A stretch of 64,000 nucleotides of DNA, from the NCBI GenBank assembly GCA_019058365.1, contig JAHPZE010000004.1, positions 128,001 to 192,000 of the forward strand, written 5' to 3'. Of the stretch, positions 5,574 to 14,792 are shown one piece after another. The stretch comes from Promethearchaeota archaeon. GTDB taxonomy: Archaea; Asgardarchaeota; Lokiarchaeia; Sigyniarchaeales; SOKP01. How positions within the stretch are numbered: the first letter of the stretch is position 1; each line of letters opens with the position of its first letter. The position numbers were made by a program, and so were the translations under genes. The notes under the pieces are model-generated. The model ran no database searches and had not been told where the DNA came from. It saw only the letters and a program-made list of their open reading frames with translations.

Positions 5574-6362
5574 ATGATGGATGAAAATTCAAAAGAATAT
5601 GTTGTTAATCGAGGAAAGAAATATTATGTTGAGGATAATAGGTTAGACCTAACTAGTAAGACAGATATTGTACTTTCTGAGGTGGAAGGGCTCGAAGATT
5701 TAGTAAATCTGGAGGTGTTATCTCTCAAGGAGAATAGCATTCATGAGATTGAGAATCTTGAAAACCTTACGAGCTTAAAGGCTTTAGATCTCAGCATGAA
5801 CTACATTACTGAGATTGAAGGTCTTGAAAGATTAACGAAATTAACAAGTTTATTATTTGGTGATGGGGATGAAGGTGGCAATCCTATATCAGAGATTAGA
5901 GGACTTGATACGCTAACGAGTTTACGATATCTATACTTCGATTCTAACGAAATATCAGAGATCAAAGGGCTCGAAAATCTTAAGAGTTTGGAGTTCTTAA
6001 GTTTATTTGATAATAAAACTTTAGAGCTTAAAGGTCTTGAAAATTTAACAAACTTAAAGAAATTAATTCTAAGCAATAATAAGATTACGAAGATGCAAGG
6101 GCTAGAGACTCTTGGAAAATTAGAATATTTGGATCTATCATATAATAATATAGTAGAGATTAAAGAACTTGAAAATCTAATGAATCTAAAAGAATTGGAT
6201 TTGAGTTATAATAAAATTTCAGAAATTAAAAGGATAGAGCATCTAGTGAATTTAGAGAGATTTAGCATTTATGATAATCCGATTAGGAGGATCTCAGGGA
6301 TTGATTCTCTAAAAGGGCTAAGAATCTTTGGAATAGATAAGCTTTTACAGGACGACCAATAA
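5574..6362 (+). CDS. Leucine-rich repeat protein (SDS22/internalin-like)
   Basis: About nine 22-aa repeats LxxLxxLxLxxNxIxxIxGL. Confidence 0.9.
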   Translation: MMDENSKEYVVNRGKKYYVEDNRLDLTSKTDIVLSEVEGLEDLVNLEVLSLKENSIHEIENLENLTSLKALDLSMNYITEIEGLERLTKLTSLLFGDGDEGGNPISEIRGLDTLTSLRYLYFDSNEISEIKGLENLKSLEFLSLFDNKTLELKGLENLTNLKKLILSNNKITKMQGLETLGKLEYLDLSYNNIVEIKELENLMNLKELDLSYNKISEIKRIEHLVNLERFSIYDNPIRRISGIDSLKGLRIFGIDKLLQDDQ

Positions 6363-6437: not shown

Positions 6438-7733
6438 TTAATGGAAAATATGTTCAAGTATCATTCTAAGATTTTCTATCTCTTTTATAAGCAATTCTTC
6501 TTTTGGTATTAATTTATAATTATGTGTTCCAATATCTCCCAAAGAGATCAACCTTTTTGCTTGTTGCATAAAAGTTTTATTAATAAAGTTAAGATCTTGT
6601 GCTATTTTTGGTATCTCTTTGAGACGTTTATATTCACCCTCCTCATTCTTATATTTATCTAATTTGTGTTCCTGTTCTGCCTTAAGATAAAATGCAGCTT
6701 CAATGATTTTTCGCATTAGAATTTGTGTCGCAACCTTACAATCATGATTATATACAGTTTCAAGTTCATAAATTAGGTTTTTTATATCTTTTGGCATCTT
6801 TTTTTTATCTGAATCATCAAAAAAATATATAAAATCTCCGGGATATTTTTGAGGTTTCTTAATTTCTTTATATAAATCAGAATCTAATCTTAAATCTAAC
6901 TCGAAAATAGAGAGATTTAACATTATTTGCAAAAAAATAAATAGCTGTTCAATTGATTTGCGATCATACTTTAACCAACTTCTTAAAAAATTAGAAATTG
7001 CAATTTTCCCGAGTTTATATAATTTATTTTCCTCAATATTAAATCTTTTTAATAAATCTATATTAAATGTGATTACTTCAAGTGTTTCCAAATCATCAAT
7101 CCTTTTTTCGATTAATCTCTCTAAGATTAAAGTTAACCTATTACTTTCATCTTTGAAATACTTGATATCATCATATAAGTCTGATAGAATGAGTTTTATC
7201 AATAAATAATGAAGAGTTTGTATAAATTCAGAATTTGAAAAATTTTCAAGGATATTGGCTTTTTTTAATTCTTTATTACATCGATCATTTAGTTTAAGAA
7301 TCATTAATCTATCCTTCTCAAGCTCCATCTCCTTAATTTGATATACTAAAAAGACGTATTTTAAATAAATAATACTATTAAAATCATGTTCACTAAAAAT
7401 TATATCAATTAAATCCATTAACATTGAAAACAAATCAGAGGAATTAATTGTTTCATATTTGTTTAAATATCTTAAGCAATCTAGTCTATGATTTAAATCA
7501 TCTTCTAGATGCGTTTTAAAAGGTTGTTTCAACGAAGATGTTAAGGATTCAACTAAATCTGTATCTTTAAAGTTCTGACCAATTATGTGATGCTTATCTA
7601 CGTTTTTTATTATAGAATATAGAAATGGATTCTCTAAAAAAATAGAAGTTTCATTAATTTTCGTGACAATATCTATATCATTTAGTAGATCTAACAAAGA
7701 AACATCAATATTATCAATTCTAATTCTGTACAT
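6438..7733 (-). CDS. Argonaute-associated putative effector: helical N-region + C-terminal DUF4145/HEPN-like domain
   Basis: ELETVYNHDCKVATQILMRKIIE...AKRLISLGDIGTH resembles DUF4145; ATG at 7733 overlaps the Ago stop (TAATG). Confidence 0.65.
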   Translation of the reverse strand: MYRIRIDNIDVSLLDLLNDIDIVTKINETSIFLENPFLYSIIKNVDKHHIIGQNFKDTDLVESLTSSLKQPFKTHLEDDLNHRLDCLRYLNKYETINSSDLFSMLMDLIDIIFSEHDFNSIIYLKYVFLVYQIKEMELEKDRLMILKLNDRCNKELKKANILENFSNSEFIQTLHYLLIKLILSDLYDDIKYFKDESNRLTLILERLIEKRIDDLETLEVITFNIDLLKRFNIEENKLYKLGKIAISNFLRSWLKYDRKSIEQLFIFLQIMLNLSIFELDLRLDSDLYKEIKKPQKYPGDFIYFFDDSDKKKMPKDIKNLIYELETVYNHDCKVATQILMRKIIEAAFYLKAEQEHKLDKYKNEEGEYKRLKEIPKIAQDLNFINKTFMQQAKRLISLGDIGTHNYKLIPKEELLIKEIENLRMILEHIFH

Positions 7734-9148
7734 TATAAAAACCAAGGTGTATTTTTCAAATTATCATGAGGTTTTATTTCATACTTACTGAATTTTGCTA
7801 TTTGATGGGCAAATATTAAAGATGCTGGTAACCGAAGTTCATTATGAGTAACTGTTTGATAGTGAAGTCCTGTTAGTGTAAATATATCTTGGCAAGCATC
7901 ATAAAAAGACCTATAACAATCCTTATTTATTCTCATATTTATTAATAAAGGGCGAGGAGTGCCCATTTCATGAGGTTTAGATCTGATTTTTCTTGCTCTT
8001 GCATAATTATAATCTCCAGTTGTACATAGATATCCAAAAACTTCACTTAATTGAGAACAAATACCTCTGTCTATATTTTTATTCATTTTATCTAAATTAA
8101 AAGATCTTAGAATGTTTTTATCGAATATCTCCACTAAACAATAATTCCTTATACTTGTATCTTTAAATTCCTTCTCAAATCCCGCAAGTTCTTCTTTTCC
8201 AAATACTCCTAATTTTTGAATTGTTAATTTTTCTATTGGATTTGAACTCCTTTCTTGATGTGAGAATAATGTCTCATGGATGATTTTGCGAATTATGATA
8301 TTAGGTACAAATAATCCTGAAGTAGTCATTTTAAAATCATCTTTATGGAGTTCTAATTCCATATCAAAATAAGTATTTGAATAATAACCCATAAACCTTC
8401 CAATATTGTTGAATATTGAAACAAAACCAGTGGTATACCCTCTTTCTTCATTTCTAGAAAATCTAATAGCAAGTGTAATATCTACATTGTGAGGGTTTTT
8501 TAGTAACCAGGGAATACCACCTGCTTTAGAATAAATCGAAATGCAAATGTTCCATAAAATATAAGGCAAACCTTTAGAATCACTAATCTTTGTTAAGACA
8601 CCCCCATAAGTATCTCCTTGATAAAGTGAGAGATATTGTATAGGATAACCCATTTTGAGACAAAGTCTTTTTAGTTTATAATAATTATTAGTATTTCTTA
8701 TTGCTCTATAGTCTTTTCCTACTGCTAATACAACATATTTTGTGTTTACAGGCTGTTTTTCTACTGGATAAATACTTGCTAATTCATTAATTATAATATC
8801 TTCTCTACCATTTTCATAGATAATTACATCTTTCTTATCTTTAGGGATATCCAATTCATCTAATTTGAAAAATGTCTTTAATCCATGAAAATATGTTCCA
8901 TATCCATTTTTTATATAATTGAGTAATTTTAGTGAATTATCTATCGCAGATTCATCTTTCAAGCAGATAAGAATTAATTTTAATTTATCAAATAATCTAA
9001 TTTTAGCGTTAAAATCATATGGGCCAAAATTTTGAATTCCTTCCATAGCGTCATTTATTTTTTCTCGTTGACCTGTTTGAAATAAAAGATTTGGTTCAAG
9101 AAATTTAACAATTTTTTTTGATTTTAAATAACTCGTTTGAATTTGCAT
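7733..9148 (-). CDS. ago: Short/pseudo-short prokaryotic Argonaute (MID-PIWI), catalytically inactive
   Basis: EPNLLF..GPYD start, MID pocket YYKLK..GYPIQYL..N..IYSKAGGIPW, GTPRPL, LTGLHY..LPASL, C-terminal PWFL; tetrad positions read LAIRFS and QKLG. Confidence 0.9.
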   Translation of the reverse strand: MQIQTSYLKSKKIVKFLEPNLLFQTGQREKINDAMEGIQNFGPYDFNAKIRLFDKLKLILICLKDESAIDNSLKLLNYIKNGYGTYFHGLKTFFKLDELDIPKDKKDVIIYENGREDIIINELASIYPVEKQPVNTKYVVLAVGKDYRAIRNTNNYYKLKRLCLKMGYPIQYLSLYQGDTYGGVLTKISDSKGLPYILWNICISIYSKAGGIPWLLKNPHNVDITLAIRFSRNEERGYTTGFVSIFNNIGRFMGYYSNTYFDMELELHKDDFKMTTSGLFVPNIIIRKIIHETLFSHQERSSNPIEKLTIQKLGVFGKEELAGFEKEFKDTSIRNYCLVEIFDKNILRSFNLDKMNKNIDRGICSQLSEVFGYLCTTGDYNYARARKIRSKPHEMGTPRPLLINMRINKDCYRSFYDACQDIFTLTGLHYQTVTHNELRLPASLIFAHQIAKFSKYEIKPHDNLKNTPWFL

Positions 9149-9152
9149 TGTA

Positions 9153-9854
9153 TTAGCATTCCCTCTCTTCTATGATTTTTTTAAAAGTCATTATTGTAAA
9201 ATCAAGATGATATTTTTTACCACCACAGAAAAACGAAATTTTAGATATTAAATTTTTAAAAAATACATAATCTTCAATCCTTTTAGACGATCTTGGTAAT
9301 TTTTTATCCTCAATTGAGGAATTAAATTCTACATCATAGATTAGATCTATAAACATATAGACTCCAAATTCTTCATCTACAAAGAATTGAAACTTAAACC
9401 CTACTATTGAATTCCCCAAATTAGGAATAAAAACAGCATTTTCTTTATATTCAACCTCACAATCAATTAAAGGTTCTCTACTTAAAGTACATAAAAATGC
9501 TTCTTTTAATATATTCGGGATAATAAGGTTTTTATAAAAGAAAGTGTTCTGAAAAGTGCAATTGTAATTTATTACTTCTAAATTTTCTAGTTCTGAATAG
9601 TTAATGTGATTAGGATTTAATAATTCCTCTGTTTTCTTAATAAAATTTGTAATAGATAAATCTTGATCAATTCTAAAAAACCATAGATCATCCAAAATTT
9701 GTGTAAATATTATTCCATTCTTACATAATTCCATTTTAACTCTATTATAATTATTAAAATTGCTTCTTGTTAAGCCGTCTATCTTCAAAGATTCTAACTG
9801 ATCAAAAACAGGACCATCTAGTTTAAATAAATCTAAAGCAATTTCTACAACCAT
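9153..9854 (-). CDS. Argonaute partner protein, probable N-lobe equivalent (Aga1/AfAgo-N/APAZ-like)
   Basis: 233 aa, ends 4 bp before ago; IVGFKFQFFVDEEFGVYMFIDLIYDV resembles the Ago L1 hairpin (GF..l.iD). Confidence 0.6.
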   Translation of the reverse strand: MVVEIALDLFKLDGPVFDQLESLKIDGLTRSNFNNYNRVKMELCKNGIIFTQILDDLWFFRIDQDLSITNFIKKTEELLNPNHINYSELENLEVINYNCTFQNTFFYKNLIIPNILKEAFLCTLSREPLIDCEVEYKENAVFIPNLGNSIVGFKFQFFVDEEFGVYMFIDLIYDVEFNSSIEDKKLPRSSKRIEDYVFFKNLISKISFFCGGKKYHLDFTIMTFKKIIEEREC

Positions 9855-10117
9855 ATTATTATTGAACTTTATTAAATTGCGTTAAAATATTTTTATCTTC
9901 TTTTACTTAATAAACAAAATTGTAACGATTTCATTATTTAATAAAACTTATTATTTTCTGGTTATTTGTCATTCCAAAAATGAGGATTTAAAATGGATTA
10001 GTTTAAAATTATAGCGAGGGTAGCAAAATTGGAAGAGTCTAAAATTTTTGACGAAGTTTTTGTTTTGGAATGTCAGTATCTCTTGTATAAAGTCACATCT
10101 TATTGAAAAGTTCTTAA

Positions 10118-10309
10118 ATTTATAAAAGTAAAAATTACAAGTTAGTATCAGGTAATTCTATACTTATTCAAGAAAATTATGGTATTAGCAAAAGCACCGC
10201 ATCGCAATATTTGACTATTTTAGAGCACTATCACCTAATTAAAAGGTAGAGACACGGAGTAAACAAGATTATTAAAATATCTGATTTCGGTAAACTTTTT
10301 ATTGAGTAG
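10118..10309 (+). pseudogene. Decayed winged-HTH transcriptional regulator (ArsR/Csa3-like C-terminus), divergent from the ago operon
   Basis: Manual translation IQENYGISKSTASQYLTILEHYHLIKR*RHGVNKIIKISDFGKLFIE*; TAG at 10247-10249, upstream frameshift/stops. Confidence 0.65.
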
Positions 10310-10344
10310 AGGTTTAAAAAATTCAGTTTAAGAAAAATTAAAAA

Positions 10345-10424
10345 GGTCGGTTCCCTGATATCTCCTTGAAGAAGGGTTGAACAGTAATTGAGGTGAGCAT
10401 TCATCGACGAGATCAGGGAACTGG
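10345..10424 (+). ncRNA. Structured ~80-nt element, copy 2
   Basis: Stem CGGTTCCCTGAT/ATCAGGGAACTG; TATA-like TTTAAAAA at 10313-10320. Confidence 0.6.
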
Positions 10425-10427
10425 AAA

Positions 10428-10448
10428 ATTAATTAAGCGTTAATTAAT
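10428..10448. terminator. AT-rich perfect hairpin ATTAATTAA-GCG-TTAATTAAT (also at 12138..12158)
   Basis: 9-bp inverted repeat right after the element and downstream of a minus-strand gene; terminator role inferred. Confidence 0.35.
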
Positions 10449-10618
10449 GTAAAAAATTTATCAAAATAAAACAAAAATCTATGCGTTTTCTAAATACTTT
10501 TTCTTGAATAGATTTAAAAATATATATTTTTAAAGAAAAAATTAGATTATTTAGAAAAAAAAAAGTTTTTTAAATTTAAATAAGGTATTAACCTAAATTT
10601 ATCAAATATTCAAACTTG

Positions 10619-11872
10619 TTATTTCCATTCCAGAGATTTTATAACAGAATCCATAATATGTACATAACGGCAGTAATCTTGAAATGTACCCTGGAAACCA
10701 AATGTAAACAGAAATTCTATTGGTTTCTTCAATGTTGGATGGATAAGAGTGATGCTATACTTTCTGGTCCAGTAACCCATCCAATATGTCAAGGCTAGTT
10801 GGCTAGCACCACCGTGAAAAATCAGGTGAGCACCCATAACTTCGGCATCCAATCGCGAAATATGCTTCTTTGAATAGTCCAACAGGGCATCATATAATTT
10901 TCTATCATCTGTGGAAACAATATCCATCGATTTGAACTTGGCCAGCTCGGATTCATCGATGCTGAAGTGTATATTCATATAAAACTTCTGTTTGGCCTTT
11001 TTAAATTTAATTTCGAGACCATTTCCGATTTCTCCCAGATAAGAGGTTCCTTTTTGTGTAATCTTCCATCCTGATGCATAGAGGGTAAAAGGGGCTCCTT
11101 TACAGACTCCTTCGAATTTAAATTCAGGTTTTGAGGGTATTATTTCGATTTTAGAAACCGCTGGTGCCACAGTCTTTTTTAAAAAGTTGATTATCTCATT
11201 TACATCGAACGTCTCTACCGATTTACATCCTGCAAGGGCAGGAAACTTTTGGTGAACTTCTGGTTCTGCAGGAATTTTGATTTCAACGATTTTGTCTTGT
11301 CCGTAATTTTGAAGCAACTTCTCAGCTTCATCAGAGCAATAAGGAGATTCTGCGTAAATTTTATTGGTGAATAATATAGCTCGTTCGGAATTAGCTAGTC
11401 CCTCGTCGATAACAGTCTGAAATTGACCGCGATCTTTCAATAAAATCCTATATTCAGCAAACCAGACGTTATAACCACTTGATATTAATTGATCAACGAT
11501 CTACCTAGCGATGTAAACATTCTGGCTTTTGTAACTGATAAAAAAATCGTATTTTTTGCCAGAAACCCCTGAAACTATTTTTTGTGAATTTTTATTAATA
11601 GAGTAATTGAGTTCCAGATTAAGGAGATATTGAACCAAATTCTTTTTCTTCATTCCGCCAGCAACTAGCAAAGGGGTATATCCATTTTTGTCCTTTGCGA
11701 AAATATCCGCACCTGAACCGACCAAAAATTTAGCTATTTCAATATTTCCATAGTATGCAGCTGCATGCAAAAGCGTGGATCCGAAATGGTTTCTTCTATG
11801 AATTATTTCCGGATTTTTGGCAACCATTTCCCTAATGAGTGAATATTGACCATCCCTAACAATGTCCCACAT
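10619..11872 (-). pseudogene. Ankyrin-repeat + TIR domain protein interrupted by a single in-frame TAG (11501-11503)
   Basis: Ankyrin GSTLLHAAAYYGNIEIAKFLVGSGAD; TIR YDFFISYKSQNVYIAR*IVDQLISSGYNVWFAEY..SPYCSDE; the two listed ORFs are in frame and 20 sense codons apart. Confidence 0.85.
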
Positions 11873-12051
11873 AGTATCTATTAATCACCGGTTGATTCAT
11901 ACAATCATGAAATCTGAAACTATGATTATATTGAACATTTCTAAAAATCTAATACATAATAATGACAAAAATGTCTTTATACAAGATGTTCAAATATTTA
12001 AATCTAAATAAATATGATGTATCAATCACTCAAGAAGAAAAATAATAATAT

Positions 12052-12208
12052 AAAGGTCGGTTCCCTGATATCTCCTTGAAGAAGGGTTGAACACTGATTG
12101 AGGTGAGTATTCATGGACGAGATCAGGGAACTGGAAAATTAATTAAGCGTTAATTAATATAAATAATTTATCAAAATAGAAGAAAAATCTATGCGTTCGC
12201 TAAATACT
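12052..12208 (+). repeat. 157-bp direct repeat, right copy
   Basis: Matches 10342..10498. Confidence 0.95.
12055..12134 (+). ncRNA. Structured ~80-nt element, copy 3
   Basis: Same closing stem and invariant core CTCCTTGAAGAAGGGTTGAACA. Confidence 0.6.
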
Positions 12209-14248: not shown

Positions 14249-14792
14249 AAATATAATATTTTGTTCAAATTAAGTTCAGAAATAAAAATTAACAATAATT
14301 TAAGTTTAAAATCTTCTATGAAAATAAAATTAATCAAAATATTAAATTCTTTTTAAAAATAAATAATGAATTTTTGTAAATTAATCACCGTTATTCTAGA
14401 AAAACGTATAATGAATGATCATATTTGATGTATAGTACAAAAAGCCATTTAATTATTTTTTAATAATCTGGAAAAAATAGAATTTAATCTATTATATAAA
14501 AATCAAACCTAGACTCATCGTTTTTTAATAAAGGGATAATTAATTAATTTCTGTAAATATTTGGTAAAATCTGTAAAAAATTTGTAAGGAATATAAAAAT
14601 TTAAAAGTATAATCAATAAGAATTATGATACTTTGGATCAAAACTAAATATTTTTAAAGAAAAAAACAGATAATTAAAAAAAAGAAAAGTTTTTTGCTTT
14701 TAAATAAGGTGTTAATATAAATACAATTTATTTTAATTAATAAACAATAAATTTGAATAAAATACTAACAGGTATAATAATTATACCCTATT

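Follow-up and report, generated by a model that had tools for sequence, protein, structure and literature searches.

A 64,000-nucleotide stretch of the genome of a Promethearchaeota archaeon (GenBank assembly GCA_019058365.1, contig JAHPZE010000004.1, positions 128,001 to 192,000; hereafter the window) contains three adjacent minus-strand genes that together specify a two-piece Argonaute with a dead slicer site and a separate soluble protein ending in a HEPN domain of the DUF4145 type. The three genes recur in the same order at every related locus for which the DNA around the Argonaute was included. We lean towards interpreting them as one module for guide-triggered abortive infection that acts through the HEPN-like partner.

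Gene 1 (positions 9153-9854, minus strand) encodes 233 amino acids (aa) and gene 2 (7733-9148, minus strand) encodes 471 aa. Gene 3 (6438-7733, minus strand) encodes 431 aa if translation starts at an ATG, and 435 aa if it starts at a TTG further upstream. An earlier reading of this DNA, made from the sequence only, had described three tightly packed genes of 233, 471 and 431 aa on this strand, and the open reading frames (ORFs) and both junctions confirm it. Genes 1 and 2 are separated by a 4-bp gap (TAA taca ATG), and genes 2 and 3 overlap by one base (TAATG).

The product of gene 2 is matched along its whole length by the PADLOC prokaryotic Argonaute (pAgo) model PDLC02436 (residues 10-456, E 5.6e-63); its Pfam Piwi match is sub-threshold. 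It aligns to the MID-PIWI part of long Argonautes only, as the sequence-only reading had proposed. That reading had also considered the guide pocket intact and the RNase H aspartates replaced, and both statements hold. The quoted pocket motifs are present, and all 13 aligned clade members share the five residues of the MID 5'-end pocket (Y156, K160, Q171, N200 and K208). In a profile alignment to CbAgo (PDB 6qzk, a D541A/D611A mutant), the invariant R229 (in LAIRFS) falls at D541, L313 (in QKLG) at D611 and H448 at D727. The PIWI domain thus lacks the DEDX tetrad, with R229 at the first Asp position and L313 at the second. The protein is expected to hold a guide without slicing.

The relatives of this Argonaute are all Asgard sequences. 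A species-genome scan found a full-length orthologue with 47% identity in Ca. Harpocratesius repetitus FW102 (JAIZWK010000001.1:1587074-1588477). This orthologue is the short, inactive HrAgo2 described in the consulted passages of Bastiaanssen et al. 2024 (PMC11217426), where the HrAgo2 clade is placed as sister to the short pAgos and not within the SiAgo-like clade. The profile of our clade matches 19 PDB Argonautes. The best is GsAgo of SPARSA (62 bits), with the long-A CbAgo close behind (55 bits); the long-B RsAgo scores 32 bits, and AfAgo is absent among the matches listed.

Sequence searches with gene 1 gave no match in Pfam, NCBIfam or PADLOC and nothing usable among PDB sequences. An 11-member profile of its family recovers only 11 representatives among 1.84 billion proteins. 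The AF2 model of gene 1 (pLDDT 83.5, pTM 0.83) revealed what the protein may be. Its top Foldseek match is SiAga1 (8znj_B, E 3.3e-6), the standalone N-lobe of a Sulfolobus system, to which neither the PDB sequence search nor the family profile detects any sequence similarity. Structural comparison with VIA aligned 175 of 190 residues to SiAga1 (9lgw_B) at Z 12.0 and a root-mean-square deviation (rmsd) of 3.8. The SIR2-APAZ protein 8in8_B follows at Z 11.3 and AfAgo-N (8pvv_C) at Z 9.9, and the APAZ parts of SPARSA, SPARHA, SPARTA and SPARDA score Z 8-11. The structure search also matched the N-L1-L2 regions of TtAgo, KmAgo and RsAgo, and the top 24 VIA rows are all Argonaute N-lobes, APAZ or the Argonaute-like Med13. 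The N-L1-L2/APAZ fold takes up all 233 residues, so that the protein has neither a PAZ domain, nor a fused effector, nor any other extra domain. The sequence-only reading had predicted such an effector-less N-lobe. Our models indicate that genes 1 and 2 together are a split Argonaute of the Aga1/AfAgo-N type.

Co-occurrence of the partner with this Argonaute is strict. All three genes, in the same order, are present in 11/11 distinct loci with DNA around an Argonaute of this clade (the window and the loci that we label L001, L002, L003, L005, L007, L015, L016, L020, L021 and L022). The flanks of these loci are unrelated to one another. A twelfth contig, compared by gene size, has genes of matching lengths. 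Because the trio recurs in every related locus, the linkage is far beyond chance. Argonaute identity across these loci spans 43-86%. The identities of the three proteins change in concert (for example 86/81/78%, 71/61/60% and 47/29/20%), with the accessory proteins evolving faster. The clade is rare. It was found in 3/400 Asgard species genomes, and scans of metagenomes and species genomes with the Argonaute alignment added only one locus; the same scan of viral contigs found none. A 526-aa MID-PIWI Argonaute with 24% identity (L009:719-2299) was considered as a seventh trio and rejected, as its neighbours do not align and the gene downstream of it resembles a type I restriction specificity subunit, with a repeated LPPLxEQxxI pattern.

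Gene 3 encodes the partner. Direct searches of Pfam, NCBIfam and PDB sequences yielded nothing usable, and Foldseek on the whole model returned nothing at E 0.001 or better. In the AF2 model (pLDDT 83.7), an all-helical N-terminal domain of about 285 aa (residues 1-285; positions 6879-7733, minus strand) is joined by a disordered linker to a four-helix domain at the C-terminus (residues 305-431; positions 6438-6821 including the stop codon, minus strand). Both domains are modelled as soluble, and no transmembrane segment was found (maximum 19-residue Kyte-Doolittle mean 1.53). The C-terminal domain matches the HEPN protein AF_0298 (2hsb_A) at VIA Z 13.4 and rmsd 2.5 over 112 of 126 residues, and VIA also matches it to the HEPN toxins 5yep_B and 7ae2_A and to Csm6 (6tug_A). 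The top ESM Atlas row for this domain is a DUF4145 cluster. An hhalign comparison of the gene 3 family with a genuine DUF4145 protein from elsewhere in this genome gave a probability of 92.7% (E 4.3e-7). These results support the earlier proposal of a soluble partner built from a helical region and a DUF4145/HEPN-like domain. The N-terminal domain is toroid-like, matching alpha/alpha toroids (GH76, transcobalamin and C3d) at VIA Z 10-12 and rmsd of about 4.8. We did not assign it to that family, since helical models reach such values by chance; an ESM Atlas feature search with this domain gave no usable match.

Part of a HEPN active site is retained. Among 13 members of the gene 3 family, H404, N405 and the helix-1 residue R341 are invariant and E345 is nearly so. 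Because these residues survive 20-80% sequence divergence, they suggest a functional site. The sequence-only reading had cautioned that the Arg of the motif RLISLGDIGTH is displaced. The motif is present, and its Arg indeed lies at His-10, versus His-8 in bona fide DUF4145 proteins; this Arg is not conserved in the family.

We modelled the complex with three chains, scoring only one of them, the N-terminal domain of gene 3. The three runs gave ipSAE values of 0.71, 0.67 and 0.00 (median 0.67), and all 3 controls gave 0.00. A value of 0.67 was attained by 58/80 solved complexes versus 2/110 mismatched pairs. The partner chain had a pLDDT of at least 70; because one run scored 0.00, agreement between the runs is put at no less than 0%. 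In the predicted interface, loops from a single face of the helical domain touch the N-terminal MID region of the Argonaute (residues 22-54, 86-97, 134-135, 218-223, 248-249 and 301-304). This supports the predicted docking of the helical domain on the Argonaute, and with it the association of sensor and effector that the sequence-only reading had envisaged.

We propose the following mechanism. The two Argonaute pieces would form a heterodimer that holds a small 5'-phosphorylated guide in the MID pocket and binds complementary nucleic acid of an invader without cutting it. The helical N-terminal domain of the partner would be seated on the MID side of the Argonaute. Target binding would then alter the complex, probably through an oligomerisation that pairs the HEPN domains. 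Once switched on, the C-terminal DUF4145-type HEPN domain would damage RNA and halt the growth of the infected cell, resulting in abortive infection.

Several observations weigh against this mechanism. The first concern catalysis. The pair of catalytic Arg and His (R-x7-H in DUF4145, R-x4-6-H in canonical HEPN) is incomplete, as His404 is kept without the Arg. The His-8 position is Ile, Val or Lys in 13/13 members, and at His-4 to His-6 the family has no conserved Arg. Because the Arg is conserved at neither place, canonical HEPN RNase chemistry appears doubtful for gene 3. A Lys/Arg at His+3 is mostly conserved and is the sole other basic candidate; a role as substitute for the Arg would be speculation. 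In RAZR, the one characterised DUF4145 RNase, both R146 (at His-8) and H154 are required, and the R146A mutation abolished defence (PMC13017515). The guide-triggered RNase of the earlier reading is a hypothesis: the invariant His is kept, and the RAZR-type Arg is replaced in every member. Pfam DUF4145 (PF13643) matches 6/13 members at E < 0.05 and only below threshold, the best reaching 20.0 bits against a curated cut-off of 23.1 bits. In the complex model, one of the three runs scored 0.00. Conservation at the predicted interface is no higher than elsewhere in the protein for the Argonaute (p 0.87), and only slightly higher for the partner (p 0.023). Finally, the flanks of the trio in the window contain zero PADLOC matches.

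The family-wide absence of the Arg that the only tested DUF4145 RNase requires would also fit another role for gene 3. The split Argonaute would be the same sensor, and the 431-aa protein would not be an RNase. Its HEPN-like domain would serve as a non-catalytic module for binding or dimerisation. As an adaptor, regulator or scaffold, the protein may bring in a host factor or the product of a fourth gene that varies between loci; alternatively, binding by the complex may in itself block the target. A survey of HEPN domains does list DUF4145-like families with "conserved H but lacks R" (PMC3710099). In addition, one sub-clade has an extra same-strand gene of 378-410 aa 3' of the trio (L005:7789-8925, L007:7818-9050 and L016:4040-5254), and one of these genes has weak P-loop matches. 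However, the fourth genes are not conserved (16-24% mutual identity) and the window has none; we rejected them as one family because the homology is unconvincing. The retained H404, N405, R341 and near-invariant E345 also suggest a functional site, and a related long Argonaute has a clear Mrr nuclease at the equivalent position. We consider a non-catalytic partner rather unlikely, although it is the main rival reading.

Guide-triggered abortive infection is the reading that we carry forward, and the genes around the trio bear on whether defence is its purpose. The operon of HrAgo2 is described, in the consulted passages of the publication, as InsG, TniQ, PCNA and TOPRIM (PMC11217426). Such a set would suit a module for transposition or replication in which the Argonaute provides guide-directed targeting for a mobile element. 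Some of these genes are present beside the trio. PCNA lies upstream of it in L015 (7478-15500) and L002 (4414-9114), both from the Ca. H. repetitus lineage. A TniQ-family gene follows it in L002, according to the precomputed Pfam annotation. L015 has downstream a 140-aa ORF without Pfam match, a 584-aa unknown protein and a 456-aa protein with a weak, sub-threshold match to an OLD-like TOPRIM domain. However, these genes occur in 2/11 loci and one lineage, and the window, L001, L003, L005, L007, L016, L020 and L022 lack them, while the Argonaute N-lobe, the Argonaute and the helical-HEPN protein are invariant. Because PCNA, TniQ and TOPRIM accompany the trio only in L015 and L002, the trio is the conserved core, not the published transposition and replication set. 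We regard a role in transposition or replication as improbable. At some other loci the trio has restriction or further defence genes as neighbours, which favours the abortive-infection reading: a type IIG restriction-modification system and a PLD-SNF2 protein in L007, and an HNH gene in L005.

Nothing specific favours a role in the host itself, in which the dead Argonaute would regulate genes or maintain the chromosome by small-RNA-guided binding of the cell's own transcripts or DNA, unrelated to invaders. Replication-linked roles of some pAgos are cited in the consulted passages of the HrAgo2 study (PMC11217426). Against such a role stand the patchy distribution of the clade, flanks that are dissimilar even between loci with 86% Argonaute identity, and the location of the trio in a repeat-bracketed segment. 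Because of these three features, a mobile accessory module fits, and we consider a host role highly improbable.

The repeats in question are three copies of an 83-nt element (1598-1680, 10324-10406 and 12034-12116) with pairwise identities of 78-84%. The copies flank an 8.6-kb segment with the trio and a 1.6-kb segment with ankyrin/TIR-like ORFs; the copy at 10324-10406, for which no strand is assigned, is given as context only. Between it and gene 1 is an AT-rich non-coding stretch (9855-10323, minus strand) with no ORF of at least 80 aa, which is the putative promoter region of the trio. A 165-nt repeat (10334-10498 and 12044-12208) overlaps the junctions of the 83-nt copies, and a second 83-nt pair (10516-10598 and 14640-14722) overlaps the same repeat junctions. 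Two neighbouring ORFs at 10619-11872 (minus strand) specify an ankyrin-repeat protein of 123 aa and a protein of 273 aa that matches TIR_2 weakly (E 4.8e-4). On the other side, a gene for a 262-aa leucine-rich-repeat protein (5574-6362, plus strand; LRR_4 E 8e-34, no PADLOC match) converges on the end of the trio.

One close parallel is the SiAgo-SiAga1-SiAga2 system of Sulfolobus islandicus (PMC11788926). Its three genes likewise encode a free-standing protein of N-L1-L2 type (about 235 aa), a dead MID-PIWI Argonaute and a separate effector, and a sensor that activates a bound effector is our working model for the Asgard trio as well. SiAgo-Aga1 binds SiAga2 only with guide and target bound (PMC11788926). 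The effectors differ. SiAga2 resides in the membrane and depolarises the cell, whereas the Asgard partner is soluble, has no transmembrane effector region of the Aga2 type and ends in a HEPN/DUF4145-like domain. In SPARTA, SPARSA, SPARDA and SPARHA, a dead MID-PIWI protein is paired with an APAZ lobe that resembles gene 1, and GsAgo of SPARSA is the best PDB match of our Argonaute. Their effectors (TIR, SIR2, DREN or HNH) are fused to APAZ, whereas in the Asgard trio the APAZ-like protein is free-standing and a third protein supplies the effector.

RAZR (PD-T7-4) shares the DUF4145-type HEPN domain, which is activated by assembly on a trigger and cleaves RNA, resulting in abortive infection (PMC13017515). 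It differs in that its zinc finger senses phage ring proteins and in its need for R146 and H154; the Asgard protein has the His without that Arg, and its sensor is presumably the Argonaute pair. On contig 46 of the same genome, outside the window, we found a 217-aa protein whose N-terminus has a zinc ribbon of the Cys4 type (CPHC...CHNC) and which also contains a full-score DUF4145 domain (L023:1204-1857). This protein retains R-x7-H and has the architecture of the antiphage RNase RAZR.

The layout itself has been reported before. By comparative genomics, Manakova et al. 2024 described split and unsplit long-B pAgos with a downstream gene for a conserved alpha-helical domain fused to transmembrane, TIR, HEPN or PD-(D/E)XK domains (PMC10954474). 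The split members, such as AfAgo-N/AfAgo, resemble the Asgard trio in having a split Argonaute and an immediately downstream gene for a helical region and an effector, and AfAgo-N is among the structural matches of gene 1. Unlike them, the Asgard clade scores best against short pAgos and has been published, in the consulted passages, as sister to these (PMC11217426). Because a helical-HEPN gene was noted beside split long-B pAgos (PMC10954474), the design is not new. The claim of the sequence-only reading that the combination is undescribed was overstated, given that report and the identity of the Argonaute as an HrAgo2 orthologue. Overall, the anatomy set out by that reading stands, its novelty was claimed too strongly, and its RNase output is a candidate activity. 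In the literature searched, a HEPN partner of pAgos is only listed in a figure legend, for long-B pAgos (PMC10954474), and the search found no experimental study of an Argonaute-HEPN pair.

What is new is the presence of this layout in the Asgard HrAgo2 clade, which the consulted passages place as sister to short pAgos rather than among long-B pAgos. Also new is a HEPN domain that by its sequence belongs to the DUF4145 type, with the usual Arg missing. The trio further provides a different reading of the published HrAgo2 operon. The HrAgo2 locus has the orthologous Argonaute and the same two flanking genes. In the main-text passages found by keyword, the study describes the operon as differing from those of short pAgos with immune effectors and makes no mention of the Aga1-like and HEPN-like genes conserved beside the Argonaute (PMC11217426).

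Two unsplit 766-aa Asgard Argonautes with 29-30% PIWI identity suggest how such partners may vary. Each is overlapped at its downstream end by a second gene, for a protein of 418 aa in one case and 434 aa in the other (the gene pairs lie at L025:2042-5576, minus strand, and L024:403-3940, plus strand). At the place of the HEPN domain of gene 3, the 418-aa product in L025 has a terminal Mrr_cat nuclease domain. Because these downstream genes share the architecture of gene 3, they suggest, by analogy, a docking region with swappable effector domains. By hhalign, the downstream genes have no detectable similarity to gene 3, nor has the N-terminus of the long Argonautes to gene 1. An SMC/AAA_23 ATPase is encoded upstream in L025, and in L024 a 1078-aa protein with AAA and weak Swt1-like HEPN matches is encoded downstream.

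Known signalling targets of inactive Argonautes include NADases, DNases and membrane toxins. The trio may hold the first Argonaute-coupled collateral RNase, a tentative idea that we rate as possible but short of probable. A two-piece, guide-loaded dead Argonaute would, once bound to its target, activate a non-canonical, Arg-less DUF4145-type HEPN nuclease on a separate docking protein. If true, the logic of Cas13 and Csm6 would operate on an Argonaute sensor in the Asgard archaea, the archaeal lineage closest to eukaryotes. The question that follows is whether a DUF4145 domain without this Arg can still cut RNA. The strictly conserved three-protein core offers a small, clean system for how the target signal of a split Argonaute reaches a separate soluble effector. 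A modular docking domain that accepts interchangeable effectors would help to explain how pAgos evolved in Asgard archaea, and it would also be of use in the design of programmable sensors.

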